Positions 33,948-51,520 are shown, counted from the first letter of the stretch. The stretch is DNA of 64,000 nt from a virus (IMGVR_UViG_3300031707_004017); one strand, 5' to 3'. Notes: generated by a model not told the origin, from the letters alone. Made by a program: numbers and translations.

Positions 33948-34253
33948 CTGTAAGCACGATAGTTTATATTTTATCTGTGTGCTTACTATTGCTTGTTTAA
34001 TGATTATAATTGGTACAAAAATAATAGAAAAAATTAATGATAAAAAAAATAAAAAGACTCACTAACCGGCTAAACGAACTTTATAAACTATCGATTATGT
34101 AGCAGGAACACAGATCATGAACATCGTCTTTGCAATTCTACTTTTTCTCATATTTTGTGTGTTGCTTATTATTTCATATAATCTAGTAGCACTAAACAAC
34201 AATTTTGTTAAAATTACTCAACACATAATTCAAAAAATTATAAGGAGAAAGTT

Positions 34254-34523
34254 ATGAAATACAAAGTTATTACAAGAGATTGGAAAGGTACTTATGGAGA
34301 TAGTCCAAAGGGATGGGTGCTATTTGCAGGAGAAGATAAAATAAGCACAGGCAAAGATTGCTTTGTCACCATATTCTCAAAAGGTAAAAGCACGAAAAAG
34401 ATGTCTGGTCAAGAAATTTACGATATACATGAATGCTTACTACGCGGAGAAGATGTAGAAGGTTACGATCTAGATGCAAAAGAGGATAACATTTTAATAG
34501 AGACAGCGGCTGCGGGAAAATAA
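34254..34523 (+). CDS. hypothetical protein (89 aa)
   Basis: Strong SD AAGGAGAAAGTT before ATG. Confidence 0.6.
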   Translation: MKYKVITRDWKGTYGDSPKGWVLFAGEDKISTGKDCFVTIFSKGKSTKKMSGQEIYDIHECLLRGEDVEGYDLDAKEDNILIETAAAGK

Positions 34524-34605
34524 ACTGCACATCTTACAACAGTGTCATGCTAAAATAAAACACAAATGAGTCTAAGAAGTTATGAGTTAATGCCATTTCA
34601 TTCAG

Positions 34606-35790
34606 TTAAATAACTTTACTGTCTACAATCTCTCCGCGCCTCATCATCTCTCTCAATTCGTCCTTCGAATACTTCATCTTACCTTGCTCATCAAAATACT
34701 TTCTATATTCGCCCTCTAACTCTCTCATCCGCTCCCTTCCTCGCTCAATTCGATCCTTAAAAAACTTTCTTACTCCCGCAACACTCTTACTCATATTCTC
34801 GTCATCGTCTGCGACTACATGTGTCCTACCCCACTCGCTAGTCCGTATCCACTCACGTATACTATCATCACTCATACTCAAAAAAGGCTCATCATGCTCT
34901 AACAGCCTTTGAGCATTCTTATAATCACTACTGACTTGCCTCACTATACTAACTACTCTCTTAACTCTACGTTCGTCATCTCTCTTCTTTCGCTCATCTA
35001 ACCGCACATTCCTGCGTCGTTCTTTCTCAGCTCTAGCTTCATCAGACACTCTCTTCCTCACTTCTTCCCTTGGCACTTCTTGCGAACTCAAATTTATTAT
35101 ATATCGATAATGATACTCTTGTATATTATATCCACCTGCTCCAATTGCTCGAGCATGAAAGTCCCAGTCCCTCTTCTTATCATCTACTAACTTTCCCTCA
35201 AACTCAAAACCCTTTGACCCTTGCCTCACTCTACCAGACACATTAACAAAATCAGCTGTCACATATTTCGCTATCGCCTGCTTCAACTTCATCAAATTAT
35301 TCTCCCTGATCCCTTGCTTCACTCTCTCTACATACAAATCTCTCTTTTTCCTATTAATCCTAAACTCGCTCAATTTAACATTTTGAAACGGCCATACACT
35401 CGGTACGTCGTACACTCGAAATAACAACTCAGTCTCCATTGACTCTTTACCAAATATATTACTCACTCCATCATATAACGACCCTCGCACATTCAAATTT
35501 CGATCGTCGCTCTTACTGCCCTCAATCCTCTTCACACTTCCATTTATCTCTCTCTCGGCCTGATCACACAACCTCTCGATCATCGGCTCACATATGTCGA
35601 CAATCTTTTGCTGAACGCTTGTCATCTCTTTATCTTTACTACTTTCATCTCTATCGCTAATCGTACCAGTTAACTTCCTCTTTGACTTAGGATGCCGTTT
35701 CAAATATCCTCGTTGCTCCTCGTCAGATAAATCGCTCCACTTACGAGCTATCTTCAAAAACTCGACTTGTATTTGAGCTATATACTTCAT
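34606..35790 (-). CDS. hypothetical protein (394 aa), Arg/Glu-rich C-terminal half; paralogous N-terminus to 15479..16702
   Basis: Shared N-terminal domain (see 15479..16702). Confidence 0.65.
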   Translation of the reverse strand: MKYIAQIQVEFLKIARKWSDLSDEEQRGYLKRHPKSKRKLTGTISDRDESSKDKEMTSVQQKIVDICEPMIERLCDQAEREINGSVKRIEGSKSDDRNLNVRGSLYDGVSNIFGKESMETELLFRVYDVPSVWPFQNVKLSEFRINRKKRDLYVERVKQGIRENNLMKLKQAIAKYVTADFVNVSGRVRQGSKGFEFEGKLVDDKKRDWDFHARAIGAGGYNIQEYHYRYIINLSSQEVPREEVRKRVSDEARAEKERRRNVRLDERKKRDDERRVKRVVSIVRQVSSDYKNAQRLLEHDEPFLSMSDDSIREWIRTSEWGRTHVVADDDENMSKSVAGVRKFFKDRIERGRERMRELEGEYRKYFDEQGKMKYSKDELREMMRRGEIVDSKVI

Positions 35791-35926
35791 ATCACTCCTC
35801 GACTCTTAATTGTAAACAAAACCTATATAAAATACTTCAATTATCAAATATTAAGAACAATCATGAATGACACATTCAATGATTTTTAACTTGACTATAA
35901 TAATGCGTCATAACAAAGGAATCATT

Positions 35927-36631
35927 ATGTTTGAGAGAGACAATCGACATGATACTGCTATTTTGAAATGTCTTCACACTGCACTCAAAGCCCTAATACC
36001 TTATCAAAGAAATACTCTTGCTACTATTGAAGTAGCTGATATTGGATGCGGCTTTACTATGCCATATCTCAATATGGCTCTTAATAGTCTCAATGAGATA
36101 CCAAAACCTTTCAATTTTTATCTTGTTGATCCGGCTTTGAAAGATCATATAAAAGAAGCTCAAGAAGAAGTAAATAAAATACAAACACTCTATCCCGAAG
36201 TATGCAATTTGAAAATATGCCCCTACACATCACAAAAATTACTTGACGAACACTTATTCAAACAACTCGATATTGTAATCATGATTCAATCGGCATCTCT
36301 TTTCTCAGATAAAGACTTCGGCACACTCTTACAAGATCTTCGACACTCTAAACCCCTTTTATGCATCGTCGTCGAACTTAATGATAAAGTCACTTTACCA
36401 ATTTATAAAGACATCAAACTTCATAAAAGATCGGTTGAAAAATATATGTACATGGCTGCTAAAGAAGGTTTTGACCATGTTGTCACTGAGATTCAAAACG
36501 CTCATGGCGAACCCGACGGACAACTCATGGCAGGAATGGCATTTAAATGGTCCGATAGATACATGTCTCTCGACAATCTTTTTCCTATTGCCGGAGTAAA
36601 ACCAGAAATTTCTGAACAAACAGGATGCTAA
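35927..36631 (+). CDS. class I SAM-dependent methyltransferase-like protein
   Basis: Motif I-like VADIGCGFT; start moved to MFERD (SD AAAGGA) inside ORF 35867..36631. Confidence 0.5.
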   Translation: MFERDNRHDTAILKCLHTALKALIPYQRNTLATIEVADIGCGFTMPYLNMALNSLNEIPKPFNFYLVDPALKDHIKEAQEEVNKIQTLYPEVCNLKICPYTSQKLLDEHLFKQLDIVIMIQSASLFSDKDFGTLLQDLRHSKPLLCIVVELNDKVTLPIYKDIKLHKRSVEKYMYMAAKEGFDHVVTEIQNAHGEPDGQLMAGMAFKWSDRYMSLDNLFPIAGVKPEISEQTGC

Positions 36632-36683
36632 AAAATCACTTCAACTCTCGACTTGATTACAAATCTTAACAAAAGTAGACTCA

Positions 36684-37575
36684 ATGATTTCATTAATTAT
36701 CTGGTCATTTATCGGTCTATTCCTATTCATTACATTATGCAATAGCATTGTATTTGTGAAACAGCAATCACTAGTAGTATTAGAACGCCTTGGCAAATTT
36801 AAAAGGATCGCTACTGCCGGAATGTCGTTCAAAGCACCATTCATAGACAACAAAGCTGGAACAGTCGAACTGCGCATCCAACAACTCGATGTTAAAGTTG
36901 AAACAAAAACTCTTGATAATGTATTCGCAACAGTCTTAGTATCTGTACAATACTTCATTGATGAAAAGAGCGCCTACAATGCTTTTTACAAATTACGTGA
37001 ACCTCACAAACAAATTACTTCTTACGTCTTCGATGTAGTACGAGCAAAAGTACCATCTCTCAATTTAGATGATGTATTTGCTAAAAGATGAAATTGCAAA
37101 CGCTGTAAAAAGCGAATTAACAGAAACAATGGACGATTTTGGCTACGGCATTACAAAAGCACTCATCACAGACATTGACCCTGATTCAAAAGTCAAAGAC
37201 GCAATGAACGAAATCAACGCTGCTCAAAGGTTACGAATGGCCGCAACAGAAAAAGGTGAAGCAGAAAGAATCTTAAAAGTAAAACAAGCAGAAGCAGAAG
37301 CACAAAGCAAAGCACTACAAGGCAAAGGCATCGCAGACCAAAGAAAAGCTATAGACGGACTAAAATCATCTGTAAATGACTTCAAACTGGCCGTAGAAGG
37401 CAGCTCGTCCCAAGACGTAATGAACCTCGTCCTAATAACACAATACTTCGACATGCTCAAAGAAGTCGGAATCGGAAGCAAAGCGATCTTAATTCCCTAT
37501 TCAGCAGGCGGAGCTAAAACAACAGCTGACGAAATCAGAAACGCTCTTATGATTGCATCAGAAACAATAAAATAA
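36684..37575 (+). pseudogene. SPFH/band-7 (stomatin/HflK-like) gene split by frameshift at A4 run ~37084-37087
   Basis: ORF1 ...VVLERLGKF...LNLDDVFAKR* and ORF2 (+1 frame) DEIANAVKSELTETMDDFGYGITKALITDIDPDSKVKDAMNEINAAQRLRMAA together reconstruct one SPFH domain; N-terminal TM helix. Confidence 0.65.
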
Positions 37576-38589
37576 ACAATTACGTAACATCGACGACGAA
37601 CATTGCACTCTCACTCAACGACTTTCAACTTGATTTAAACAATGTCACAAATAATTGATGATAACACTCTAAAATGTCAATTTTCTTTTGAATCATAAGA
37701 AGATCTCAATGTTTCGTAAGTACACGTTTACATGGATGGTTACTACATTGGTTAGGTTTTATTGTTTGCCGAATAATGATCCTCCATAAAATATGGTAGA
37801 AAATTGTCACATCTTACAATCTACCGTTGCGCAACCGTTGTGCGAAAGAATTTTTTCTTTTTGGATCCTAAACGGTATAGGAGCGCTCAATGGATATCGT
37901 TGAATTTTTCAATCCCTACAGTGTAGAACATCTCAAAGCCTATGAACATTTATCTACATGGAAAATGGCCCACAGACTTCATACTGAAAAATTTGGAATA
38001 TTCGAGAGAATGTCTGGCAGGTCGGGATAGTAAATAAAATGGCAAATGCTTGGCTCGAACAAGCTAAAGCAGGACATATTTTTGGCATGCCTCATTTTGA
38101 TCAATAACTAGACTCACACACAAAAAAACTAATCTCTTCTCTACCCAAAAAATGAGAACTAAAGAACAACCCTTTCTTAATTGGACATACACTTGTGATA
38201 TTTGCAAAGACAATATCATTATAGTATCCACCAATGATAGGATCTGTTAGATTACCTGAAAAGGTTGGGAAGAACTCACGTTTTGTATCTATTTTAGCAC
38301 ATGTTTGTCCTAAACAAGAATGCAAAGAAAAAGCAAAAATTGCTTTTCCAGATTATTATTATGAAGAACAACAAATTATCGTTTCTAATTGATTCCAGAT
38401 CAAACACAAATTGAAAAAATGATAGACGCCCTGGATAGGACAGAGATAAATGAGAATATCTCTTTAGAGTATTTCTCAATGATCGTAGCAGGATGTCTGA
38501 TGACAAAAATGAAAAGATCGATTGGATAGATTTACAAGGACATAGCTCACAATTGGTTAGAGCGCTACGCTGTCACTAATCTCCCCACC

Positions 38590-39970: not shown

Positions 39971-40020
39971 TCTATAATATATCGCGCGCGTAAAGGATTT
40001 TGACGAACGAAATTGTTATC
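39970..40020. repeat. left boundary inverted repeat
   Basis: tataatatatcgcgcgcgtaaaggattttgacgaacgaaattgtt = reverse complement of 57834..57870 with 1-2 mismatches. Confidence 0.75.
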
Positions 40021-40171
40021 CCTTTGCTCGTTCTGTTAAGATCTCGCGGATGACGCCGATGAGGTCCGAGGGTAAGACTAAGTGATCGTTAGATAGCAGC
40101 GACGAGTAGATTTCGATATCGTTTTGTCCGTCGTCGATGTGTTTAATGATTTCTTCTCGTAGTGTCATTTT

Positions 40172-40582
40172 TTATCCTTTGTTTAAGATAGAATATTCGT
40201 GGTCTTCTATGACTCGCACATAGCCATGTTGTTCGACCATAGTAATGGAGCCTTCGTCCCACACATTTGTGATGCCTGTTGCTTTGAGCGACTCTGAGAC
40301 TCGGAGAGCGTGTTGTTCTTTACACTGTTCTCGATATCGTCGTTGTAATTCTTCGATTGTCAAGTCGCTCGTCGAGTTACAGGGTTGGCCAGGTAAGATT
40401 CCGAGGATCGATCGAGTATCGAGTTGTTTCGTGAGTGGTAATTGATTTTCAAAAATACCAGTAACCCTGCATTTCGGTTCATTTTTGTAATGCACACAAA
40501 CTACATGATCACCCTTTTTTACATGATCACTCTTTTTTAGCTTCATAACATATCTCCTAGATCGTGAACGTGTTCCAGACAT
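40172..40582 (-). CDS. hypothetical protein (136 aa)
   Basis: ORF track. Confidence 0.5.
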   Translation of the reverse strand: MSGTRSRSRRYVMKLKKSDHVKKGDHVVCVHYKNEPKCRVTGIFENQLPLTKQLDTRSILGILPGQPCNSTSDLTIEELQRRYREQCKEQHALRVSESLKATGITNVWDEGSITMVEQHGYVRVIEDHEYSILNKG

Positions 40583-40815
40583 TTTAGAGCGAAAGTTTCA
40601 GTTTCGTCTTTAGTGAGCGAATATTCAGTGCCTTTTTCGTCTTTCACTGACACGATGTCGACGTCTTCGGGTAAGTCAGGTTCCATTTGTAAGCCGAATT
40701 CCCTAGAACCGCGTTCAGCCGGGGTGTAATCAAATTCGATTTCGACATCGATTTCGTGTTCTTCGCCGTCGATATCACGGAGAATGTGACAATTTTTTAA
40801 GAATAATTTTGACAT
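40543..40815 (-). CDS. hypothetical protein (start at MSKLFLKN, SD AAGGAGAAAAC)
   Basis: Internal Met with strong SD inside ORF 40543..40872. Confidence 0.5.
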   Translation of the reverse strand: MSKLFLKNCHILRDIDGEEHEIDVEIEFDYTPAERGSREFGLQMEPDLPEDVDIVSVKDEKGTEYSLTKDETETFALKCLEHVHDLGDML

Positions 40816-40840
40816 GTTTTCTCCTTGATGACCGGTCCAG

Positions 40841-41062
40841 TTAAACTCCGTAGACGCTTTTGTTGTACACATGCGTGTCGCCGAAACTATCGATCGCGTT
40901 GAGATTCCAGACTTTCATTTCATTAAGGGTTTCTTCTTCGATGGGAGAGAGCACATTGTGTTTTTGGCAAGTCTCCAATGCGCGCTGAATAGCCATCAAT
41001 TTGCCGAGGGTCAAGTTCACTGCAAATGCGTTTTTACCTTTTTTCAACCTTGTTAATATCAT
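40841..41062 (-). CDS. hypothetical protein (start at MILTRLKK, SD AAGGAGGAT)
   Basis: Internal Met with strong SD inside ORF 40841..41122; preceded by conserved upstream element. Confidence 0.5.
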   Translation of the reverse strand: MILTRLKKGKNAFAVNLTLGKLMAIQRALETCQKHNVLSPIEEETLNEMKVWNLNAIDSFGDTHVYNKSVYGV

Positions 41063-41094
41063 ATCCTCCTTCTTAGTGATATAATCATGTAAAA

Positions 41095-41215
41095 TGTGCG
41101 TGCGGGCCCAAAATGTGGCCACAACATTTGGCGTAGTTTCTTGAAGTCATAGACTTCTCAGATTAGGGTAAAAAAAGGAAGGTATAAAACCATAGACCGA
41201 TGGGTTTTCTTTAAT
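41095..41215. promoter_or_regulatory. conserved upstream element copy 1 (GTGCG..CAAAATGTGGCC ... TAGACTTCTCAGATTAGG ... GGTATAAAACCAT)
   Basis: Shared blocks with 47797..47975 and 50974..51090; divergent intergenic region. Confidence 0.55.
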
Positions 41216-41346
41216 CTGAAGCCATTCTATAGGTTGACCTAAGCATTTTAATGTCTTTTAAAGTATTAGAAATCAACTACTTAGACGGTCATATTTTGGG
41301 ACGGTTTGTGCATACAGCATGATTATAATATTAACAAGGAGGACCC

Positions 41347-42192
41347 ATGGAGCAGAACCAGATCACATTAACAGTAACCGAATCCGAACGGCAACTTATT
41401 GAGGCCGAACGGAAACGCAAAGAAGCCGAAGCAGCTGAAATGGCTGCCCGGAAAAAAGTTAGTGATGCAAAGAAGATCGAAGCAATAGCCGTGCAAGCTC
41501 GCACCTTCACCGAGCAAAAAGGTCGCGAAAAAATCGCTTATCGGCAAATGTTCGACAATCTCAATTACGAAGCACCGAACTGCTACTCGCTGAAAGTCGA
41601 ACCAAAGACCCGTAAGTTCACCGCCGAGAATTATCGCTGCCAAGAGGATGGTGGTCCGGAAATCCTGGCATCACAGGATGTCGCTTACGAATCTTTCAAC
41701 ATCGTCCACATCGCACATCCCGAATTCGAAATCGTTGTTGAGTTCCACGATGGCGAATGGCGATATCGGATTCATTGCGGCCTCGGCTACCCGACTTCTG
41801 AGAAATTCTACAAGAAAGCTTCGACAGTCGCCGAGAAAATCCATGATCATTTCGAACAGAAGCGCCGGATATCTGACCTCCAAAAGCGGACGCTTTCTTT
41901 GCAAGATCAACTGGTCGAAGTCCTTAAAGCAAAATATCCGGATGCTGCGAAAATCGAAAAAGGTTCACATTGGGAAAGTGGCTATTCTTACCGTCGCGGT
42001 CGTCGATTTCCAGATGGCGGCCACGATGTGCAAGTCGTCATTGTAACTTTTCCCAATAGTTTCAAAGTCATTTACACGCCCGGCACAGATTCTAACGGCC
42101 AACTCAAGGCAAACTTCCGGTCGATGAATCTCGAAGCAATCGACGTAAACGCGATGATCGACTTTTGCAAGACGGCACCGAAAAAAGCATAA
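41347..42192 (+). CDS. hypothetical protein (281 aa)
   Basis: SD AGGAGGA; no family recognised. Confidence 0.65.
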   Translation: MEQNQITLTVTESERQLIEAERKRKEAEAAEMAARKKVSDAKKIEAIAVQARTFTEQKGREKIAYRQMFDNLNYEAPNCYSLKVEPKTRKFTAENYRCQEDGGPEILASQDVAYESFNIVHIAHPEFEIVVEFHDGEWRYRIHCGLGYPTSEKFYKKASTVAEKIHDHFEQKRRISDLQKRTLSLQDQLVEVLKAKYPDAAKIEKGSHWESGYSYRRGRRFPDGGHDVQVVIVTFPNSFKVIYTPGTDSNGQLKANFRSMNLEAIDVNAMIDFCKTAPKKA

Positions 42193-42223
42193 GCATTTTT
42201 TAACTCTCAAAAAGGAGCGAGTC

Positions 42224-42505
42224 ATGAGTAACTTACTGGCGAGGATCAAAGAAACTGCGGTCGAAGTCCTACCCGATTCGGACCGCTACAAAGTACGCTT
42301 CAAAGTCCGCTCACAGTCGTCGAACCAATTGTACTTGGTCTCTTACGACAATGCTCCCGGTGCGCAGTACTGGACGTGTTCGTGCCGCGGAAATATTCGT
42401 CACGGTCAGTGCAAGCATCTGAGTGCTTGCGGGCTCAAGGGTCGCGCTTACGGACGGCAAAGCCTTTCACAGTACATCAACGGAGGAGTTTTGTCACATG
42501 CGTAA
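42224..42505 (+). CDS. SWIM zinc-finger protein
   Basis: YWTCSCRGNIRHGQCKHLSACG = CxC..x..CxH SWIM signature. Confidence 0.6.
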   Translation: MSNLLARIKETAVEVLPDSDRYKVRFKVRSQSSNQLYLVSYDNAPGAQYWTCSCRGNIRHGQCKHLSACGLKGRAYGRQSLSQYINGGVLSHA

Positions 42506-42652
42506 AAACATTTGGACGTCACAATCGCAGTATGGAACTTATCCGGACGAAGCAAAACCCGTCAGTAAATCTACGGCCTACCGGTGGTTCAAAGAAGACA
42601 GGGTGAAAACGCGTCGGTCACAGTCGATGCAAAAAGTGGAGGTCGCAAATTC

Positions 42653-42904
42653 ATGAATGCGCGCCAGATCAAGAAACTCATGTTAAATGAACTGGACATT
42701 CCCAGACACAAGATCGAGTATGTAATCTCTCGTCCAGTCCTCGTCCAGGGTTTATGGGGTTGCTTGGCTGCATACGGCGTCGAACACGATCGAGAAAATC
42801 ATGAATTGCTGGTCGAAATCGTGCAAGACAAGTTAAATGAACCGGATATTGAAAGAGAGTGGAGTGAACTCGAATATGAAACGTTTGTAAAATGGGGGTC
42901 GTAA
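42653..42904 (+). CDS. hypothetical protein (start MNARQIKK, SD GGAGG)
   Basis: Internal Met with SD inside ORF 42584..42904. Confidence 0.45.
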   Translation: MNARQIKKLMLNELDIPRHKIEYVISRPVLVQGLWGCLAAYGVEHDRENHELLVEIVQDKLNEPDIEREWSELEYETFVKWGS

Positions 42905-44025
42905 AAATGCCTAAGAAAAGCTTTTGGACATCGCAATCGCGTTACGGCACTTACGAGGGCGAGAAGGGAAATCCTGGACAATGGTCATCATCATTCGGCT
43001 TCACCTTCGAAAACTCCAACTCGGTGAAATCGATCATGGGAATGACTGCTTATTCGATACTCGACCTCAAACCCTCAGCCAGCGACGATGCCGTGCGCAA
43101 TGCCTTTCGTAAACTAGCAAAACGCTATCATCCCGATAAGGGTGGCAATCGAAACAAGTTTGAAGAAATCACGACTGCTTACGAGACCATTAAAAACATG
43201 CGAGGCACGTCGAACCATACTCGCTCATCGAGGGCCCAAAATATGCACGGCCCGACAGTCCAATCGGAGCTTATTGTCCCACAACTGCTCACTGAGATCG
43301 AAGAGTCTGAATTAGCGACGTATTTATCCGATGATAATTTCGCATGCCAAGAGAAAAAAGACGGCAAGCATTTGACGTTACAGATACTCGACGGCCAATT
43401 TATCGTGCGAAATAAAAAAGGAATCGCATCGAGTTGTATGCCGGAATTTGAACCTGCAATACGGTCAGTCGGCCTTGATTTGCTCATCGATGGCGAACAA
43501 ATCGGTACCACATTTTGGGCGTGGGACGTGCTCGAATATGCAGGACAAGATCTTCGTAGTGAGTCGTATTATTCGAGGTATCTTAAATTGTCTGGAATAA
43601 ATTTCGGACCCGAGATTCAAGTGCTTAAGTTAGTGACAGGGACAGATGCAAAAACTCGATTCTACAACGAGCTAAAAAATGCGAACAAAGAAGGAATCGT
43701 ATTCAAGAAACTAGTGGGGATATTTAGTCCGGGAAAAGGTTTAGACCAATTGAAATTCAAATTTTATACAGAGTGTTCTGTGATAGTAGCTGCAGGTCGT
43801 CCGGGAAAAGCGAGCATCGGAATGGAATTGATTGGTCAAAACGGACGCGAATTCGTGGGATATTGTTCATGTAATCGTCACCCACCGATTGGAAGCGTCG
43901 TAGAAATCAAATATTTGTATGCATATCCGGGCGGTTGCCTTTATCAGTCTAGTTTCAAAGAACCGCGTGATGATGTCTCAGTCGATGAATGTACGATTTC
44001 GCAATTGAAATATAAACCGCTTTGA
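42892..44025 (+). CDS. DnaJ J-domain fused to minimal ATP-dependent ligase-type nucleotidyltransferase
   Basis: J domain YSILDLKPSASDDAVRNAFRKLAKRYHPDKGG (HPD); ligase motifs I KKDGKH, III LLIDGEQ, IIIa FWAWDVL, IV EGIVFKK, V LKFKF. Confidence 0.75.
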   Translation: MGVVKMPKKSFWTSQSRYGTYEGEKGNPGQWSSSFGFTFENSNSVKSIMGMTAYSILDLKPSASDDAVRNAFRKLAKRYHPDKGGNRNKFEEITTAYETIKNMRGTSNHTRSSRAQNMHGPTVQSELIVPQLLTEIEESELATYLSDDNFACQEKKDGKHLTLQILDGQFIVRNKKGIASSCMPEFEPAIRSVGLDLLIDGEQIGTTFWAWDVLEYAGQDLRSESYYSRYLKLSGINFGPEIQVLKLVTGTDAKTRFYNELKNANKEGIVFKKLVGIFSPGKGLDQLKFKFYTECSVIVAAGRPGKASIGMELIGQNGREFVGYCSCNRHPPIGSVVEIKYLYAYPGGCLYQSSFKEPRDDVSVDECTISQLKYKPL

Positions 44026-44056
44026 AAAGAGAATTCTATTATAGAGAAGGTGCAAC

Positions 44057-44272
44057 ATGACTATTGACGAAGCGATAAAGACCGCCAAACGAGAAGTCAA
44101 AGATTTGAATGCTCAAGCTTATTTGCATGGCATTCCCAAGTCGATAGAGTTGTTCGGATTAGAAGGTTTCAAAACTCAAATTTTATATACACTTAGTAAC
44201 ATGGCTTCGTGGCGAGGTGAAACTGCTCGCAAAGTCAAAACTACGATGCGAACTTGGATCAAATCGAATTAA
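44057..44272 (+). CDS. hypothetical protein (71 aa)
   Basis: ORF with SD-like GAGAAGGTG. Confidence 0.45.
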   Translation: MTIDEAIKTAKREVKDLNAQAYLHGIPKSIELFGLEGFKTQILYTLSNMASWRGETARKVKTTMRTWIKSN

Positions 44273-44726
44273 TCGGGAATTAGCTTTCCGTTCTCAGTCT
44301 CGTGGAAACATCCTTCATAATAAGCGTCTAGAAATCGACGCACTTTCCGAGCGACTTTATCGTAAAGCGAGTGTTGGTGTTCAGTCCGTAAAGCCGCAGG
44401 ATTTGAAGCATTGTTGTAAAGTCGAATTGCTTGAAAAAATTTCTTATCGCTCCGGCAAAGTAGATCGAACATAAGCCCTCCCCAAATGTGGCTGTTAATT
44501 CACACCGGAACTGGGTAAACAATTTTTAAGAGATTTCATACTTGGCACGACATTTGACACATATCACACAGTCGCAATAAACGATAAACTTGTGCTGGCA
44601 TGGCACCATAGCGCGGTAGGTGTCTGTTGAGCGAGTACTGCGGACTTCAGAGTTTCCCATGCTTCTTCACCACAATCACCATACACATACGGACATCCTT
44701 TGTTATCAATGTATTCAACTGCTTCT

Positions 44727-45098
44727 TTAATATTCATGGCAACCTCCTATCATAGATTTAATTTGTAGAGAATTCTTTAATGCTTGAATTTCTTGTTCGG
44801 GATTATATATTAATTTTGTTTTGTTACGTAACCATTTAATAATGAGATTATTGAGTTCTTTATCTTTTACAAAACCGTTTTTAGGAATTATGATAGTCGT
44901 GTAACCGACTTCATGTTTTTCAGCTCGACGCAATAGACAAATTAAATCAATCTCGTTAGCTTCACAAAGCTTGAACCATAAGTCGTCTTTTGGGCAACCG
45001 AATTCGTGTTTTAATTCGTGAATGAGACAACGAATAAATTCTTTGAGAAATTTTATCATAATGTTCTTTTGAAAAGAGTAAGAGTTAGAATATAGCAT
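44727..45098 (-). CDS. small HExxH-motif protein (putative Zn metallopeptidase-like)
   Basis: CLIHELKHEFG. Confidence 0.4.
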   Translation of the reverse strand: MLYSNSYSFQKNIMIKFLKEFIRCLIHELKHEFGCPKDDLWFKLCEANEIDLICLLRRAEKHEVGYTTIIIPKNGFVKDKELNNLIIKWLRNKTKLIYNPEQEIQALKNSLQIKSMIGGCHEY

Positions 45099-45157
45099 CT
45101 ACGAATAGGAGGCGTGGACATCTACATTCGCTCTTACTCTTAACTTTTGCACAGTAT

Positions 45158-45535
45158 TTACCGACCTGCCCGAAGTTTACACCAACAATCGTGACACTGT
45201 AACTTACCAGATACTATATCTACATGCTCAATAAAGCCAACAGGTTTGTGACAATCGGTGCAAATTTCGGAATGTGATTGTTGTACAAGCGCTCGAACTG
45301 TTTCCCTCAGTTGCTGCATTTCGTACACTATGGCACCATTGTGTGCCTCCCTTTCAGTGTGAGCGAAGTATTCCGGAAATACTTGGTTTAGTTCATAGTC
45401 TTCGCCAGCAAGGTGATGAATTATAGCCGCGCGGAACTGACCAATCTCATTCCTCTCTTTAGCGTTCTGATCTTTATCCTTTTCTTTACCAAGAAGACTC
45501 AATAATCGTTTTTGCAATTTTCTATTCTCCATCAC
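45158..45535 (-). CDS. hypothetical protein (125 aa)
   Basis: ORF track. Confidence 0.5.
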   Translation of the reverse strand: MMENRKLQKRLLSLLGKEKDKDQNAKERNEIGQFRAAIIHHLAGEDYELNQVFPEYFAHTEREAHNGAIVYEMQQLRETVRALVQQSHSEICTDCHKPVGFIEHVDIVSGKLQCHDCWCKLRAGR

Positions 45536-45579
45536 TTCTTCCTTTGGTGGTCACGATTTGATCAAATACCTTGTCAAGT

Positions 45580-46503
45580 TCATGAATTCATGTCAAAAAG
45601 TGACCGTTGTGCCGGTATTATATTATGTGACAAGTGCGTTTCGGGTTCCGATCCGTCATACTGACTATATGGATTGTTCGCAGAAATGCGAACGACTTTT
45701 CCAGTGGGATTTACTGTACATCCGCGTTGCAATGATGTCACTTTCGTCGATACGACTTTCGTCGGTGCTGCTGCCCAATCAACGTCGTCTTCTTTGGGTT
45801 TGATTTCGCCTTTCCGAATAAATTTGTTTTTTGCTAAATCGAATTCAAGCAGCTCGAATTCATAAATTGTACCGAAGCTCACTTGAGGGAAAAGTCCAAA
45901 ATCGCTTTTGATGTCTAGTGCTTTCTTAAGCAAGCTTTTCGTCGATGCGAAGAATATCATATTGTGGCAATAACCTATTGCTAACGGTCGATTGTCGTCG
46001 GTCCAAAAATAAATCTTCTTTATCGTCTTATTGTAAAGAACTATTGTCGCGCTACCATTCATATTTTTGATGGCATTCTTAATGCCCTGTCGTTGGATAT
46101 ACGAAAGGATAACTTCTGAGTCGACATCTTCGCTCGTATATTTATAATTAGCGATTTTCGGCATGCGGACTGTTCCGTTATGGATTATGATCCAATCTTT
46201 GGATTCAAATGGGTGAGCATTGATGTCTTTTGTTCGACTCTCGGGAGTGGTGTTAGACGAAGCTGCACGATCATGACCTAGCACAAATCGTTCATTAGCG
46301 AGTTCAGCGATGACTCGACCTCGCTTGACGAATTCTGTTGCCGTAATTGCTTCTTTTACGATACCGAGATTGGGTGCGTAATAACCTGTAGCATCGGTCC
46401 CACGAATCTGAGTCTCTATGAGACCTTTTTCGAAGATTTTAACGAGATCAAGATTGGTTTCTGTCTTAATGGTCGGTTTTATCCAACCAAATATTCCACA
46501 CAT
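45580..46503 (-). CDS. class II glutamine amidotransferase (Ntn hydrolase) domain protein, stand-alone
   Basis: MCGIFGW N-terminal Cys nucleophile, RGTDATGY, GHDRAASSNT...NAHPF, IIHNGTV: full GATase-2 motif set; no fused synthetase domain. Confidence 0.8.
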   Translation of the reverse strand: MCGIFGWIKPTIKTETNLDLVKIFEKGLIETQIRGTDATGYYAPNLGIVKEAITATEFVKRGRVIAELANERFVLGHDRAASSNTTPESRTKDINAHPFESKDWIIIHNGTVRMPKIANYKYTSEDVDSEVILSYIQRQGIKNAIKNMNGSATIVLYNKTIKKIYFWTDDNRPLAIGYCHNMIFFASTKSLLKKALDIKSDFGLFPQVSFGTIYEFELLEFDLAKNKFIRKGEIKPKEDDVDWAAAPTKVVSTKVTSLQRGCTVNPTGKVVRISANNPYSQYDGSEPETHLSHNIIPAQRSLFDMNS

Positions 46504-46560
46504 CCGCGCCTCCTATATATTTAATCAAACTATTTTGCATAGATGGACCATTCTCATTGC

Positions 46561-47229
46561 TTATTCTTCAGAGTCACAACGAACTGTTGCAGTCCCGTCC
46601 AACCGTAATTTCATCTGCTTCACAGGATTCGCTGCTCGAATTAGTTTGAGCATTTTCTTTTTATCTGAATTTTCCCAGACTTGTTTCCAATACTTAGGCA
46701 TTGACTTCTTCAACACGTTCATCATCTTTTCCGTTATCGGCTTACCGGTCAAAAACCATTTGGCAAAGCTGCACAAAATGTGACCGTCGTGGCCAGTAAA
46801 ACCGACATTGTTTCGAATCGTCGTCATTTCGGTCTGTTGTTCAGCAATTGTTTGGTGGTTGAAAATAAGCACAAGCGCTTTCGTAATCCACCGGGGATCA
46901 GTGCGGAGCTTTTTCTTAATGAACTCCTTGATTTCATCTTGTTTGATCGTGTGGAAGAGGTCCCAATATTCTTCCCAATCTTTCATGAAATTGAACGCGT
47001 CATCGATATTATCTTGCCATGATGACTGCTCTGATAAAGCGATAAAGTCAGCACCAACACCGTGCTTTTCTTGATATTTCGTCAACGGCATGTTGACCGT
47101 TATACGCGGTTGGTCGAAGACTAATTCCGCCCTTAAAAAGGCCGCATACTGTCTGAGTTCATCGATAGTTTTCATGATAACCAGGTTTCTATGCATTAAG
47201 TACAGATCTCGCGTTTGCATGCCGCTCAA
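46561..47229 (-). CDS. hypothetical protein (222 aa)
   Basis: ORF track. Confidence 0.55.
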   Translation of the reverse strand: MSGMQTRDLYLMHRNLVIMKTIDELRQYAAFLRAELVFDQPRITVNMPLTKYQEKHGVGADFIALSEQSSWQDNIDDAFNFMKDWEEYWDLFHTIKQDEIKEFIKKKLRTDPRWITKALVLIFNHQTIAEQQTEMTTIRNNVGFTGHDGHILCSFAKWFLTGKPITEKMMNVLKKSMPKYWKQVWENSDKKKMLKLIRAANPVKQMKLRLDGTATVRCDSEE

Positions 47230-47554
47230 TATATGACTGTTGACAATTCATTTCTTCGGCGACTTTTTTGTCGTATTCAATCTTGAGAGAAGCCAGTCGG
47301 TTTGGATGGTTCGCGATTTTCTGTGTGCATTCTTCGACTTCTCGCAGCGCTGAATATCTTGAGTCAGCGTAGACCGAGTAGCCGCCGGATGATTGTCCCC
47401 GACTGAGCGGGTCCGGAGGTTCTCTCACCAGCGTAAAATGTGCGCTGGAATATTTGATCCGAATCTCTGCTAGTTGCCGTTTAACAGCTTCTTTGTCCCA
47501 GCTGTAGATGCCGGTGAAGCTGAGTCCTTGTTCGTGTGCCTTTTGTTTTGTCAT
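47189..47554 (-). CDS. hypothetical protein (121 aa)
   Basis: ORF track. Confidence 0.5.
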   Translation of the reverse strand: MTKQKAHEQGLSFTGIYSWDKEAVKRQLAEIRIKYSSAHFTLVREPPDPLSRGQSSGGYSVYADSRYSALREVEECTQKIANHPNRLASLKIEYDKKVAEEMNCQQSYIERHANARSVLNA

Positions 47555-47754
47555 AAGTCACCACTTTCCAAGCAACCGCGCTCGTACAATGACATCGTCT
47601 CTTCAATTTGGGCCTGTTCGTCCAGATTTACATCGGCCAATCGCTGCTCCATCAAGTCCTTTGCCGTATCAAGGACATCGATCTGCTCTGGAGTATAGCA
47701 ATGGTCAAACGACGTTGAACCCTTCCTCGCAAAATCATCGGCTAAATGCATCAT
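47551..47754 (-). CDS. hypothetical protein (67 aa)
   Basis: SD AAGAAGGAGGATAAG before ATG; downstream of conserved element. Confidence 0.45.
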   Translation of the reverse strand: MMHLADDFARKGSTSFDHCYTPEQIDVLDTAKDLMEQRLADVNLDEQAQIEETMSLYERGCLESGDL

Positions 47755-47796
47755 TTTCTTATCCTCCTTCTTAATAATATAATCAAGTAATCTGCA

Positions 47797-47975
47797 TGTG
47801 CGAGCTCAAAATATGACCGTTTAAGTAGTTGATTTCTATAGACTTATAAAACTTACTATTCAAACACATAGAATATCGTCAAACGACAACGGACATATTT
47901 TGAGCAGTCAATGATTTCAGAGCCTTATGAGATTATCTCAGATTAGGTTTATGACAAGAGGTATAAAACCATTAC
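47797..47975. promoter_or_regulatory. conserved upstream element copy 2 (includes AAGTAGTTGATTTCTATAGACTTATA at 47823..47848)
   Basis: 26-nt block identical to 50999..51024; shares GGTATAAAACCAT and TCAGATTAGG with copy 1. Confidence 0.6.
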
Positions 47976-48029
47976 TAAAGATTTTAAACTAATCGGAGTG
48001 CTTTAGATACGTTTTAAATTCGATGGGGG

Positions 48030-48479
48030 TTAAACGGTCTTATTTTGAACTTGCAAGTCAGTACGCTCTTTACGTGCCTTACACCAGTCGCCGCTCACAA
48101 TTCGTTCGTAATGTCCGTTTTGGAAATGTTTTCCACCAATATAAACCCAAACTCGTTTTCCAGATTTCGTCGTCGCTTTCTTCCTTAAAAACAAATCGTT
48201 CGTATGATCGTATCTCAAATGATATCCTTCAAAATGGTCGAGAGTGCCAATGACATGACTGTAAGTAGTCTCATAAACTTCACCAACAACCCGGTCTTTA
48301 TTCGATTGAGAAAAACTGATATAAGGATAAGCCCAGTTAGCACTAAAAAGCTTGCCTCGAATTGAATCATAGCAGATGAATGTTGCGCCGCTTAAAAGAT
48401 TAGAACGACTGTCAGCTTTCCTAAGAGTACCATAAACGAAGATTAAGACTTTGTCATTTTTTTTCATCGAGGACCTCAT
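48030..48479 (-). CDS. gamma-glutamyl cyclotransferase-like (AIG2/GGCT fold) protein
   Basis: VLIFVYGTLRK N-terminal YGTL motif and downstream GEVYE catalytic-Glu context. Confidence 0.65.
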   Translation of the reverse strand: MRSSMKKNDKVLIFVYGTLRKADSRSNLLSGATFICYDSIRGKLFSANWAYPYISFSQSNKDRVVGEVYETTYSHVIGTLDHFEGYHLRYDHTNDLFLRKKATTKSGKRVWVYIGGKHFQNGHYERIVSGDWCKARKERTDLQVQNKTV

Positions 48480-48480
48480 A

Positions 48481-48511
48481 AAAAAGGGCTAAAATATATA
48501 GCCCCTTTTTG
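48481..48511. terminator. hairpin terminator between convergent-orientation minus genes
   Basis: aaaaAGGGCTaaaatatatAGCCCCttttt. Confidence 0.45.
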
Positions 48512-48529
48512 AACACCTTTTCTGGAGAA

Positions 48530-48883
48530 TTAAGCTGCCGCAACTTCTGTCTTGCGAGTCCGCTTTGCCTTGGAAATGTCGCCCATAACATTATTGATGG
48601 CCGCTGTAACAGCAGCCTGCACAGCTACATTGAGTTCTGCGCTTTTGGCGATTGCGGCATCGATGCGCTTGTAGAGCTTTTCCGGAACACGATTGATCTT
48701 TAGGCCTTTGACGGCGAGCTTGACTGCTTTCTTCGTCATCGACCGAGCGCGTTTGAGAGTGCGATTGAGTTTTGCGACTTTGATGACCAGCCGTTTTTTG
48801 GCTTTTTTCGCTTTGGAATGCCGCTTTTTCTTGCGATCGATTTTCAGAGATTTCGGCTTCCGTTCACGTTTTCCTGTTGCCAT
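48530..48883 (-). CDS. highly basic Lys/Arg-rich small protein (117 aa), possible nucleic-acid-binding
   Basis: KRERKPKSLKIDRKKKRHSKAKKAKKR...; contains the segment shared with 27867..28613. Confidence 0.5.
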   Translation of the reverse strand: MATGKRERKPKSLKIDRKKKRHSKAKKAKKRLVIKVAKLNRTLKRARSMTKKAVKLAVKGLKINRVPEKLYKRIDAAIAKSAELNVAVQAAVTAAINNVMGDISKAKRTRKTEVAAA

Positions 48884-48949
48884 TCATACACCTCCTTGAG
48901 TTATAGATTAAAGACAGATTTAAATAGCAGTGAAAGCTCTGTCGTGTGA

Positions 48950-49372
48950 TCAATCACCGCTGGATGCTTCGTCCTGTCGCTGATGAGCCTCTTCACGAGC
49001 GACATCGAGAATACTGAATTTCACCGATGAAGCGCCGATGGCCTTGAAAAACTTCGTCAATTGTTCTTGCACCTTTTTGGTCCCGTTCTTGCCGTGGCGA
49101 ACCGCATGGGACAGAAGGATGTTTGATTGCGCCTTGATGCCGATCCAATTCATACCGATCTTCGACAAGAACTTCGACTTTTCGACCAACTTGAGAGCGG
49201 CAATCGATGGTTCGCTGACATGTATGATGTTGGACGGCGCATGGCGCCACTCGGCCAATCCACGAATCGACAACGTCGAAACATCGACGCGTTTCGTGTC
49301 CGGGAAATTTACGGTACCGGTGAGGTTGAGACCCTCATCATCCGTATTGAATTGAAGCGTTACTTCCTGCAT
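48950..49372 (-). CDS. hypothetical protein (140 aa)
   Basis: ORF track. Confidence 0.5.
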   Translation of the reverse strand: MQEVTLQFNTDDEGLNLTGTVNFPDTKRVDVSTLSIRGLAEWRHAPSNIIHVSEPSIAALKLVEKSKFLSKIGMNWIGIKAQSNILLSHAVRHGKNGTKKVQEQLTKFFKAIGASSVKFSILDVAREEAHQRQDEASSGD

Positions 49373-49435
49373 GTTTGCCTCCTATTGGTTATGTATGTGT
49401 AATCAGTTAATCTGTGATTTTTGGTCCATTTTTTC

Positions 49436-50695
49436 TTAAGCTTCTACTTCTCTACGCATTTTTTTACGCACGCACGTTTCGAAGATTCTCGCGATATCTT
49501 CTGACATATTGGGATTCGACGCTCTCGAGTTGTAAAACACTGAATTGTTTAATGGATTCGATTGCACGCGTGAATCTTGGCTTGTAGTCGACACCAAATT
49601 CCTACGATGGATTTCGATGAAGCGCGCCCGGTATTGACTGCTTCGAGGAATTTTCAAAAATGGCCGCAATTCTTTACTGAAATAAATCGTGTTCGGTCTT
49701 AATCGGATATCCCGTGAAAGCTGTAATTGCCACGGTGTGTAATCGCCAAGGGGATAGATTCGAACTTCTGATACTGCAAACCGGCAGACTTTGAAAACTG
49801 TCTCCTGTTCGAATTCGTTCTCCCGATGAATTATCTTTAACTGGCAAATCTGTAATTGAATCCTCTCCGATCCCCGACGACTGCGACGGCTAGTTGCAGT
49901 CACATCCGATTGGATTAAATTGGGATTAGGATTAGTCCACAATTCTATACAATTAGGATTGTCCAATCGGTATGTTTTCGAAAATACGATTCGCTTGAAA
50001 TTCGCGATCTGAGTCGCATAATAGGATTGTTCCGGTCCTGATTCCGGTACGAGCATCGCATATTCGCGCTTCCTCGCGACTCGTTTCGCAGTAATGAGGT
50101 GATCGAACGCAGTCGGTTTTACTTGCCACATCTTAGCGATCTGGTATGCGATTGCCAGCACCGATTCTGCTAAGACGGGATCAGTGATCCACGACGGCGG
50201 CGTCCGATATTCGAAACCATGAGGTTGCATTCGCACATCGCCCGGTTTTCCATAAGATTGTCCGCTCCTTTTCGCACCGGGCACTTTTTTCAATCGTAAA
50301 CCTAGAAAATAATCGAGAGTCGTGATTAGTCGGCCTTGATGATTGTTACCAAAATTTGTTTGCCGACGGCGTCGACCATGATCATGGCTACTCCAAAAAG
50401 AATCCCAAGACATTCCAAAATGGATGTGCCCACCAGTAGCCTCGTGATATTGTTCACCGCCGCCGCATACAATCTTTATCTGGGGATGATGAGTTTTTAC
50501 ATGATGGAAAAGGTGCCTGAGGTTTTCGACCACTTGAGTAGGCGTTCCCGGCGCTGGCCGCATCTCACCGACACGGTTACCGTGATCCGACCCAACTTCA
50601 CCATACCGACTCTGATAACTGATATTACATAAAATACTTCGATTTTCTGGACCGACCACCATAAATTCAGGATCACATCCCAATGTCAATGGCAT
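49436..50695 (-). CDS. glutamine synthetase-fold amidoligase (GCS2/Amidoligase_2-like)
   Basis: N-terminal strand TLGCDPEFMVV (metal-binding acidic pair), GEMRPAP, and TGGHIHFGMS (GS-like HxH motif). Confidence 0.6.
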   Translation of the reverse strand: MPLTLGCDPEFMVVGPENRSILCNISYQSRYGEVGSDHGNRVGEMRPAPGTPTQVVENLRHLFHHVKTHHPQIKIVCGGGEQYHEATGGHIHFGMSWDSFWSSHDHGRRRRQTNFGNNHQGRLITTLDYFLGLRLKKVPGAKRSGQSYGKPGDVRMQPHGFEYRTPPSWITDPVLAESVLAIAYQIAKMWQVKPTAFDHLITAKRVARKREYAMLVPESGPEQSYYATQIANFKRIVFSKTYRLDNPNCIELWTNPNPNLIQSDVTATSRRSRRGSERIQLQICQLKIIHRENEFEQETVFKVCRFAVSEVRIYPLGDYTPWQLQLSRDIRLRPNTIYFSKELRPFLKIPRSSQYRARFIEIHRRNLVSTTSQDSRVQSNPLNNSVFYNSRASNPNMSEDIARIFETCVRKKMRREVEA

Positions 50696-50762
50696 ATATC
50701 CTCCATGAGCGGTATAAGTGCCTATACAATAATCATGTCACTGATGAAAAACGAACCTAAAA

Positions 50763-50924
50763 TTCAATTGCCTTGTATTTACCGTGACCGGGATACTGCC
50801 TTTTTGCTTCTTGAATTGCTTCGGATTTCGTTCCTACTACCCAATAACCGACTGTAAAATCTCCCTGGTCCTTATCTGAAATACGAACGTTATAAGCCTT
50901 TTCTGTCTTCTTACGGTTCATTTT
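50763..50924 (-). CDS. small protein (54 aa, MNRKKTEKAYNVRISDKDQGDF...), below ORF-track cutoff
   Basis: Perfect SD AAGGAGGATAAAAAAATG; immediately downstream of conserved element copy 3. Confidence 0.45.
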
Positions 50925-50973
50925 TTTATCCTCCTTCTTACCTTCTTATTACTATAATCACTATTGTAGAGCA

Positions 50974-51090
50974 ATGTGCGCCCAAAATGTGGTCATCTAA
51001 GTAGTTGATTTCTATAGACTTATAGAGACCTATGATCGATTGTACCAACGTATCAGATTAATTCAGATAATGAATTTAGCCTAAGTTAAT
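50974..51090. promoter_or_regulatory. conserved upstream element copy 3 (GTGCGCCCAAAATGTGGTC...AAGTAGTTGATTTCTATAGACTTATA...TCAGATTAAT)
   Basis: See copies 1 and 2; inverted partial copy CATATTTTGAGCTCGCAC at ~51172. Confidence 0.6.
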
Positions 51091-51299
51091 GGTAATATAC
51101 CTTCTTAAAATTTACCTCTATCGCTATTTCAAAATTGACGTAGATAAAAGCGATGTCTCATTAATTGACTGCCATATTTTGAGCTCGCACGCACATTCTA
51201 CTTGATTATTATACTAACATGAAAATCTTTCTTAATGCATAGAACAATGGACCAAGATTCAAAGATAATGTGATTATAATCTTAACTTAGAGGTATCTA

Positions 51300-51497
51300 A
51301 TGCCTAAGCTGGTTGACAAAACTGTAAAATTAGAGTTAGTCGGGCTAGATGGAAACGCTTTCTCTCTTATGGGGGCATTTCAGAAAGAAGCTCACAAACA
51401 AGGATGGACAAAAACAGAAATTGATGTCGTCCTTGATGAATGCATGAAAAATGACTATGATCATTTGCTCTGTATCTTGAGTGATCATTGTGAATAA
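51300..51497 (+). CDS. hypothetical protein (65 aa)
   Basis: ORF track. Confidence 0.4.
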   Translation: MPKLVDKTVKLELVGLDGNAFSLMGAFQKEAHKQGWTKTEIDVVLDECMKNDYDHLLCILSDHCE

Positions 51498-51520
51498 CAA
51501 CTTCAACAAAGGGGCCTTTT

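Follow-up and report, generated by a model that had tools for sequence, protein, structure and literature searches.

Minimal ATP-dependent ligases, such as the ligase domain of Mycobacterium tuberculosis LigD, LigC, and Lig E, have a two-domain core of ~250 aa, in which a nucleotidyltransferase (NTase) domain is joined to an OB-fold domain. To our knowledge, targeting of the DNA ligases characterized so far relies on modules for DNA binding or protein interaction, such as DBD, BRCT, zinc fingers, WGR, or PCNA-binding motifs. Among these, WGR is the DNA-break-binding module of PARPs. A J domain at the N terminus of a DNA-replication enzyme is found in the large T antigen of SV40/polyomavirus, where it brings host Hsp70 to viral DNA. 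SV40 makes use of the host chaperone (PMC12619734). Phages encode J proteins as well, with an HPD motif expected to engage DnaK, such as RB43 Rki (PMC3486835) and those covered in the portion of a jumbo-phage survey considered here (PMC7824862). We report here on a 64,000-nt stretch of viral DNA (IMGVR_UViG_3300031707_004017, referred to as the window), in which a J domain and a core of the DNA-ligase type are encoded by a single open reading frame (ORF). The corresponding protein, which we call J-ligase, belongs to a compact module that also encodes a SWIM-like zinc-finger protein (SWIM93) and a microprotein (g52) sharing with J-ligase a short N-terminal peptide, hereafter the N-motif.

J-ligase has the two-domain core of minimal ligases, which are its best structural matches (1vs0 and 6nhz at ~1e-16, 6gdr at 5e-14), but these enzymes have nothing that corresponds to its J module, and J-ligase lacks their Ku/polymerase/phosphoesterase context. 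The J domains of T antigen are among its PDB sequence matches (1gh6 and 2pf4), although T antigen is the helicase of a eukaryotic virus, not a ligase, and shows homology confined to the J domain. J-ligase also shares an HPD-containing J domain with Rki and other phage J proteins, but Rki stands alone and acts on sigma32 and, in the sources above and as far as the portion of the jumbo-phage survey goes, none of these proteins is reported to have a fused nucleic-acid enzyme, a SWIM partner, or the N-motif; nor is a J-ligase fusion described in that portion. A sequence-only reading of the window had not recognized this architecture from characterized phages. This holds for the 50,697 GenBank phage records, in which the full fusion was not found by tblastn, and for the literature that we searched, which yielded nothing relevant on J-domain–ligase fusions or on phage SWIM proteins with a J domain. 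The best ligase core in GenBank phages, which is from Tunturiibacter phage Tunturi_5, is 32.6% identical to that of J-ligase (tblastn).

A J domain fused to a minimal ligase core

The three ORFs singled out by the sequence-only reading, encoding the SWIM-like protein, J-ligase, and a second ligase-like protein of 205 aa, are all present (Table 1). However, the true start of J-ligase is probably ATG 42907 (MPKKSFW) rather than 42892, since a G-rich ribosome-binding site goes with this codon, which also agrees with the N termini of the homologs; an independent gene call (P0001) supports it too. Residue numbers in J-ligase follow the 377-aa numbering, i.e., that of the ORF opening at 42892.

The J domain is canonical, as had been proposed. 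It matches Pfam DnaJ (PF00226) over residues 53–102 (E = 1.7e-13, with 50.9 bits for a cutoff of 27.8) and the J domain of human DNAJA1 (phmmer E = 7e-10), and its HPD motif (H80-P81-D82) is intact. In the alignment, helix II is basic, with R, R, and K at the positions of R22, K26, and R27 of DnaJ, which contact DnaK (PMC8215388). In the AlphaFold model of J-ligase (mean pLDDT 84.5, and >90 over the ligase core), the J domain consists of helices spanning residues 51–56, 65–79, and 87–105 (pLDDT ~86–95), and residues 106–125 correspond to a disordered linker. Upstream of the J domain is the N-motif, in which Y18 is invariant and residues 12–22 are predicted to be disordered, and which is also found in standalone J proteins and in g52. 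The possibility that the N-motif (…YGTYxGERG…) is a degenerate WGR was tried and rejected, with an hhalign probability of 0.6% when the N-terminal region was compared to 41 WGR N termini; there is no Pfam match to WGR (PF05406) in J-ligase either. Mean pairwise identity in the main clade of J-ligases is 59% for the N-motif, 42% for the J domain, 13% for the linker, 58% for the NTase domain, and 73% for the OB domain, while it reaches 79% for the core of SWIM93.

The ligase core, which consists of the NTase and OB domains, spans residues 126–377. All the motifs that had been listed for it were found, i.e., KKDGKH (residues 155–160), DGEQ (200–203), FWAWD (208–212), EGIVFKK (267–273), and LKFKF (287–291), and their key residues are invariant across 29 homologs (Q153, K155, G158, D200, G201, E202, F208, D212, E267, G268, V270, K272, K288, and K290). 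Motif VI reads R-D-D-V, in which R359 and D361 are invariant. Profile searches identified J-ligase as a member of PHROG 114 "ATP-dependent DNA ligase" (E = 1.4e-11), and many of its homologs have a precomputed match to Pfam DNA_ligase_A_M (PF01068). Foldseek matched the model to the M. tuberculosis LigD ligase domain, LigIV, LigIII, LigE, and T4 ligase (E ~1e-16 to 1e-13), and the alignment with LigD (6nhz) covers both NTase and OB domains (target-normalized TM-score of 0.68, rmsd of 4.2, 307 columns). These sequence and model-based matches indicate that the core is predicted to be a complete minimal ATP-dependent DNA-ligase-type core, similar to LigD/LigC. Many homologs are named LigD by JGI, but orthology to LigD was rejected since TIGR02779, which is the best NCBIfam match (E = 3.6e-11), scores 42.8 bits, far under the equivalog cutoff of 227.75 (TIGR02779/TIGR02776 level). 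No Ku or primase-polymerase genes were found in the neighborhoods examined. We infer that J-ligase most likely seals DNA nicks or ends: its OB domain bears a motif-VI-like element, DNA ligases are what it matches best in both sequence and fold, and a related WGR-ligase of Maribacter adjoins genes for an SbcC-like AAA_23 ATPase and an MBL-fold protein (see below).

Table 1. Coordinates in the window of the J-ligase module, the domains of J-ligase, and the 205-aa protein
Feature	Position	Strand	Remarks
SWIM-like zinc-finger protein (SWIM93), 93 aa	42224..42505	+	pI 9.7; first gene of the module
g52, basic microprotein, 52 aa	42498..42656	+	N-terminal motif of J-ligase (MRKNIWTSQSQYGTY...), then SKSTAYRW
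g83, acidic ORF, 83 aa	42653..42904	+	between g52 and J-ligase; gene call in L001
J-ligase (J-domain–ligase fusion), 372 aa from ATG 42907	42907..44025	+	ORF opens at 42892
N-terminal linear motif (N-motif) KKSFWTSQSRYGTYEGEKGNPGQW	42913..42984	+	residues 8–31; conserved
J domain	43042..43206	+	residues 51–105; HPD at 43129..43137
NTase (adenylation) domain	43267..43764	+	motif I K155 at 43354..43356 (QEKKDGKH); motifs III, IIIa, IV, V
OB-fold domain	43765..44025	+	motif-VI-like P-R-D-D at 43963..43974; most conserved region of the protein, 73%
g71, small conserved ORF	44057..44272	+	downstream of J-ligase; tblastn 49% identity
OB-less DNA-ligase-type adenylation-domain protein, 205 aa	52811..53428	+	motif I KLNGWR at 52922..52939

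The fusion is recurrent. Among the 120 best database matches of J-ligase (JGI, ENA, and Logan sources), 71 have a J domain and a ligase in one ORF, while the other 49 have a ligase without J, with an N-terminal WGR in 42 of these. Since the same protein is present in an independent Logan assembly, SRR9617949 (L001), in which the locus is identical and J-ligase (P0001) shows 100% identity, and since the architecture is shared by 71 of 120 matches, many of them from contigs of hundreds of kb, the fusion is due neither to chance nor to an assembly artifact. The ligases with a WGR domain (WGR-ligases), which are common in phages and are the nearest sequence relatives of the core, are ~45% identical to J-ligase in this core, which starts after the linker with the same IPQLL...QEKKDGKH, and display the same PQLL...QEKKDGKH...RDD...QLKYK landmarks. 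They too have an accessory N-terminal module followed by a linker at the same position, but this module is WGR instead of motif + J. Hence, the motif + J module sits where WGR sits in sister ligases, and WGR appears to have been exchanged for J. WGR-ligases have been noted as an "NT-OB_2-WGR" cluster, without characterization (Williamson and Leiros 2020, PMC7470946). In a neighbor-joining tree of the cores, calculated without bootstraps, the main J clade and the WGR clade form contiguous blocks, and there is a second, deeper J clade, so that the two J-ligase clades are parted by WGR-ligases; this topology is compatible both with one fusion event and with two. In IMG/VR, a pattern-based scan, which needs exact pattern matches and covers contigs that may be partial, detected 49 WGR-fused loci and 1 J-fused locus of this ligase family.

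The surroundings of WGR-ligases differ from those of J-ligase. In two phages (L007:2316-9077 and L017:1573-7071), the WGR-ligase is preceded by a MoxR-like AAA ATPase, DUF2201 (vWA-metallopeptidase type), DUF1281_C, and a ~260-aa gene. In a Maribacter metagenome-assembled genome (MAG) (GCA_947490135.1, L008:3065-9062), the genes upstream of it encode a 704-aa AAA_23 (SbcC/Rad50-like) ATPase and an MBL-fold (Lactamase_B) protein, which makes for a repair-like neighborhood. According to the portion of the jumbo-phage survey considered here, in which the SWIM domain is unmentioned, jumbo phages encode a MoxR–vWA pair and, sporadically, DnaJ co-chaperones (PMC7824862). A looser parallel is the yeh cluster of Escherichia coli (yehF WGR, yehL MoxR AAA+, yehP VWA, and yehQ SWIM), which has SWIM, WGR, and a chaperone-like ATPase in one neighborhood, whereas in phages a WGR-ligase is found with a MoxR-like AAA ATPase and DUF2201, and SWIM with an Hsp70 co-chaperone. 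However, the yeh cluster has neither a ligase nor a J domain.

A SWIM-like protein paired with the motif and J domain

The first gene of the module encodes SWIM93, whose CxCx8CxH signature (C52, C54, C63, and H65) is invariant in 22 diverse homologs and is the basis on which we assign it as SWIM-like. The family comprises >128 proteins of ~90 aa, which are 63–85% identical, with a core better conserved than any part of the ligase. It is specific to huge phages, and we found no description of it. The sequence-only reading had placed the SWIM gene immediately upstream of J-ligase, but two ORFs (g52 and g83) intervene. The SWIM stop and the g52 start overlap by 8 nt, with a GGAGGAG preceding the g52 start, the g52 stop and the g83 start overlap by 4 nt (ATGA), and 2 nt separate the end of g83 from ATG 42907. 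As judged from this spacing, SWIM–g52–g83–J-ligase is a tightly coupled operon. The gene calls in L001, which is the Logan copy of the window, are in the order 281 aa, 93 aa (SWIM), 52 aa, 83 aa, 372 aa (J-ligase), and 71 aa.

The small genes of the module are unequally conserved. For g83, tblastn detected homologs in L001 only, with no conservation beyond this phage, while g71, downstream of J-ligase in the window, has a homolog directly upstream of J-ligase in L003/4. The g52 protein, with sequence MRKNIWTSQSQYGTYPDEAKPVSKSTAYRW..., has conserved counterparts in L003/4 (9320-9466) and L005/6 (9732-9872) and matches an HMM of the J part with E = 2.9e-4. Past the motif, g52 proteins of the main clade continue with SKSTAYRWxKEDR, which may resemble part of the recognition helix of small helix-turn-helix proteins. 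In the second clade, the analog of g52 is a motif-bearing microprotein of 61 aa (L018:7728-7913) with sequence MADKKKSNFSLDKYKTHDGKRGSPDQW....

A SWIM gene is found upstream of J-ligase in all the lineages examined (the window and L001, L002, L003/4/10, L005/6, and L018 from the deep second clade). In contrast to J-ligase, there is no SWIM gene within 3 kb of the WGR-ligase loci of IMG/VR, which argues that SWIM goes with the J module rather than with the family of ligases. Moreover, the motif + J module also exists as a standalone gene encoding ~100 aa, which is 1) directly after SWIM in L009, L011 (1-nt overlap), L013 (4-nt overlap), and L015, 2) ~0.8 kb downstream of SWIM in L014, 3) two small genes away in L016, or 4) 5.5 kb away in L012. 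L016 is an uncultured phage of 595 kb (LR756511.1), the only GenBank phage in which tblastn detected a SWIM + motif-J pair, which is distant. On one contig of 103.5 kb, a SWIM + standalone-J pair coexists with a WGR-ligase ~21 kb away. These patterns of gene content and order show that the conserved partnership is between SWIM and motif + J, with the ligase fusion as one outcome, and J-ligase looks like a fusion in which motif + J replaced WGR. On the 200-kb viral contig containing L013, a second protein with an N-terminal J domain, of 377 aa, is encoded 8.5 kb from the SWIM + standalone-J pair (L013:18860-19993).

A family of OB-less adenylation domains and the surroundings of the module

The window encodes another protein with ligase motifs, which the sequence-only reading had presented as a paralog with an altered motif I. 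In this 205-aa protein, motif I is E36-I-K38-L-N40-G-W-R43, followed by DGEL (III), FWD (IIIa), EEGIVIK (IV), and WFKIKK (V), and the sequence ends 9 residues past motif V. It matches Pfam DNA_ligase_A_M with 43.2 bits (cutoff of 26.2), whereas RNA ligase PF09414 is below threshold (18.6 bits for a cutoff of 27), and the fold matches of its model (pLDDT 88.6) are NTase domains of DNA ligases only. The predicted KLNGWR and motifs III–V are thus as described, but the protein is OB-less and its relationship to J-ligase is only distant. When compared to the NTase domain of J-ligase by hhalign, it gives a probability of 97.6% with 24% identity, i.e., the two sequences are those of distant paralogs and not of recent duplicates.

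When 1.84 billion representative proteins were searched with a profile of the 205-aa family, 229 clusters were obtained at E <= 1e-10, nearly all of 175–225 aa, and the median length in the family is 200 aa. Rather than a local oddity, KxNG is the norm in this family, with 88 of 115 diverse representatives displaying it, as compared to 17 with KxDG and 5 with KxKG, and the Asn is invariant in 19 close homologs of the window protein. K38 is conserved in 115/115 representatives, E86, D103, E167, G168, K172, and K193 are each present in 105–115 of them, and motifs III, IV, and V are conserved at >95%. The family profile is closest to NTase domains of the Lig1 type (E = 1e-24) and LigD (1e-22), followed by capping enzymes (1e-9) and RNA ligases (1e-7), and its N-terminal YPxxP aligns with the PxxPMLA at the start of ligase adenylation domains. 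As judged from these alignments, the family is distinct, under selection, and OB-less, and not a decayed copy, and the 205-aa protein is probably a separate, active enzyme. A role as a catalytically dead partner, which had been one of the suggestions, is unlikely because KxNG is the family norm and the catalytic residues are conserved. A caveat is that the window copy has a Ser at residue 58 (52982..52984), which is the motif-Ia Arg in 105/115 family representatives and in 13/19 close homologs. A change from D to N in motif I is also found sporadically among J- and WGR-ligases (8/120).

The Asp of motif I in human LigIV is a candidate for binding metal and, when the enzyme is in its closed state, forms a salt bridge with an OB-domain Arg, while T4 Rnl2, which is OB-less, has a His (His37) at this position (PMC6035275). 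By analogy only, this difference may offer one rationale for KxNG in an OB-less family. The 205-aa protein is similar to Rnl2 in being an OB-less covalent nucleotidyltransferase without the motif-I Asp, but it is nearer to DNA-ligase adenylation domains, has no Rnl2-type C-terminal domain, and has Asn rather than His. We considered that an OB domain might be provided in trans, which was rejected since there is no second OB-like ORF in the window. The conserved neighbors of the gene (g201, g140, g79, g148, and g251) have no informative Pfam matches, the small ORFs upstream are not conserved between phages, tblastn of the 205-aa protein against GenBank phage records gave 0 matches, and the literature searched contained nothing relevant on OB-less ligase domains of this type. 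In several related phages, the gene is on the same contig as J-ligase, a co-occurrence that may reflect shared ancestry only.

The window is phage DNA, with genes for baseplate-wedge-like, tail, and Hoc-like proteins within its first 32 kb, and its source is a huge (jumbo) phage. Metagenomic contigs (up to 466 kb) and viral contigs of IMG/VR (138–488 kb) contain relatives of the locus, in phage-like gene surroundings, and megablast with 5 kb of the locus found no close relative in the GenBank phage records. No tRNAs were found in the window, and a scan for promoters and terminators gave a number of sites no higher than expected by chance. A defense or anti-defense role was considered, but PADLOC gave 0 matches for the seven proteins of the region that were submitted. 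The G+C fraction increases from ~0.31–0.37 in the structural-gene block (1..38000) to 0.40–0.46 in the small-gene block that contains the module (40000..52000). Three genes of the window, for a class-II glutamine amidotransferase (45580..46503, − strand), a GGACT/AIG2-like gamma-glutamyl cyclotransferase (48030..48479, −), and a COOH-NH2 (amidoligase-type) ligase (49436..50695, −), recur near J-ligase in the huge phages L003–L006, which suggests a peptide- or metabolite-modifying set. The 125-aa protein encoded at 45158..45535 (−) has a Cys-rich C terminus (CTDCHKP...CHDCWC) and is probably a zinc ribbon. At ~36684..37575 (+), corresponding to L001:3778-4669, two adjacent and slightly overlapping ORFs of 135 and 167 aa both match Band_7/SPFH and may represent a split or frameshifted gene.

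A possible coupling of Hsp70 to strand sealing

Our preferred reading, which we hold with a confidence slightly above even, is that the module (SWIM, the motif microprotein, and motif + J with its fused ligase) couples chaperone recruitment to strand sealing. J-ligase would self-adenylylate on K155 and then seal breaks like other ATP-dependent ligases. Its J domain, via HPD and the basic helix II, would dock on host DnaK/Hsp70-ATP and trigger the ATPase where the ligase works or, alternatively, pass the ligase to a DnaK-bound complex. The outcome would be protein remodeling at phage DNA coupled to strand sealing. The N-motif is a short disordered peptide common to two proteins of the operon and always found with SWIM, for which the simplest interpretation would be that of a docking peptide, for SWIM93 or for a common partner; g52, with the same peptide, might compete or co-assemble. 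Such remodeling would be comparable to that of the lambda O-P-DnaB complex and P1 RepA by DnaK/DnaJ (PMC8215388), and to the use of the J domain by SV40 large T antigen. A more elaborate version, which we consider rather improbable in its entirety, is that SWIM93, the docking peptide, and J form a target-specific phage Hsp70 adaptor gating polynucleotide sealing. In such a composite scheme, the target recognized by SWIM93 would be a protein cap or the DNA itself, either an end or a structure. J-ligase would dock via its N-motif, with g52 competing or acting as a regulator, DnaK would be triggered to remove or remodel the protein bound there, and sealing of the break by the fused ligase would follow. 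The OB-less KxNG enzyme may share this pathway. We know of no characterized precedent in any virus or cell for chaperone-coupled ligation of this kind.

Several observations weigh against the coupling of Hsp70 to sealing, and they bear on what the J domain does as well as on the chemistry of the core. HPD is lost in 15 of the 71 fused proteins (variants HRAD, HPN, HTD, and HQD), e.g., in P0016, P0018, and P0028 (HRAD), P0022 and P0026 (HPN), and P0035 (HQD), and in standalone J proteins such as L012:15799-16254 (HTD) and L014:11150-11500 (none), all of which retain the N-motif. Changes of this kind in HPD abolish Hsp70 stimulation (PMC8215388). Because HPD is missing in these proteins, Hsp70 coupling is likely but not universal across the family. 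Repeated loss of HPD, with N-motif and SWIM conserved, is what would be expected if the J fold were an Hsp70-independent interaction surface, e.g., for the SWIM protein. Such a function is very unlikely in our view, since strict HPD is kept in 56 of the 71 fused proteins (79%), the window protein has both HPD and the basic helix-II residues that contact DnaK, and the Pfam score of its J domain is far over threshold. Another possibility is that SWIM + motif-J has a general role unrelated to ligation, as a co-chaperone or host-takeover device, and that the fusion is incidental, bringing no coupling beyond co-expression or ligase folding. Standalone SWIM + J pairs without a nearby ligase (L009 and L011–L016) are in line with this, as is the pattern scan, which detected no member of this ligase family on the other five IMG/VR contigs with SWIM + standalone J, although the scan relies on exact patterns and contigs may be partial. 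In addition, Rki targets sigma32 and not DNA (PMC3486835), and the DnaJ proteins of jumbo phages are predicted, in the portion of the survey considered, to recruit host HSP70 for folding/assembly (PMC7824862). Nevertheless, the fusion is kept in 71 database clusters and in two clades parted by WGR-ligases in the neighbor-joining tree, the J module is at the exact position of the break-sensing WGR of sister enzymes, and conservation of the N-motif in fused proteins equals that of the catalytic domain, so that we see an incidental fusion as rather unlikely. The assignment of the SWIM partner also counts against our preferred reading. The zinc finger named by the sequence-only reading is borne out by its invariant signature but not by Pfam SWIM (PF04434), which remains sub-threshold for SWIM93 (15.6 bits for a cutoff of 19.6, E = 0.012) and for all of the 22 family members scanned (11 at E <= 0.1, best E of 0.011), and an hhalign comparison of SWIM93 to E. 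coli YehQ was not significant (3% probability, over the Cys/His segment only).

As for the core, motif I ends in His (QEKKDGxH) rather than in the usual Arg and motif VI is without its Lys, both throughout the clade and both distinguishing J-ligase from minimal ligases; its match to DNA_ligase_A_M (25.1 bits for a cutoff of 26.2, E = 1.6e-5) is just below the cutoff; and DNA versus RNA as substrate cannot be read from the sequence. J-ligase and/or the KxNG protein could be imagined as RNA ligases mending tRNAs, or other RNAs, that host anticodon nucleases have cut, as T4 Rnl1 does, with the J domain bringing Hsp70 to RNA–protein complexes. Related huge phages have several RNA_ligase (PF09414) genes nearby, some family members match PF09414, and the Maribacter homolog is labeled "RNA ligase family protein" by NCBI. 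Furthermore, KxxG is all that motif I requires in RNA ligases (PMC3400036), T4 Rnl2 has His at the Asp position (PMC6035275), and the 205-aa paralog resembles RNA ligases in having no OB domain. However, both proteins match DNA-ligase profiles and structures far better than RNA ligases, the OB domain of J-ligase with its motif-VI-like element is typical of DNA ligases and capping enzymes, and the N terminus of the paralog aligns with the PxxPMLA of DNA-ligase adenylation domains, which makes RNA repair distinctly unlikely in our estimation.

While ligase cores and J domains are both known, we found no description of their combination in one architecture and gene module, nor of the SWIM-like family of huge phages, the short linear motif that is shared within the module, or the large family of OB-less KxNGxR adenylation proteins. 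The swap between WGR and motif + J on one core, together with the split and fused forms of J, amounts to a natural experiment whose pieces are small. As an accessory module, the J domain would be of a different kind from those that target other ligases, since it would bring an ATP-driven remodeler, Hsp70, to the site of ligation.

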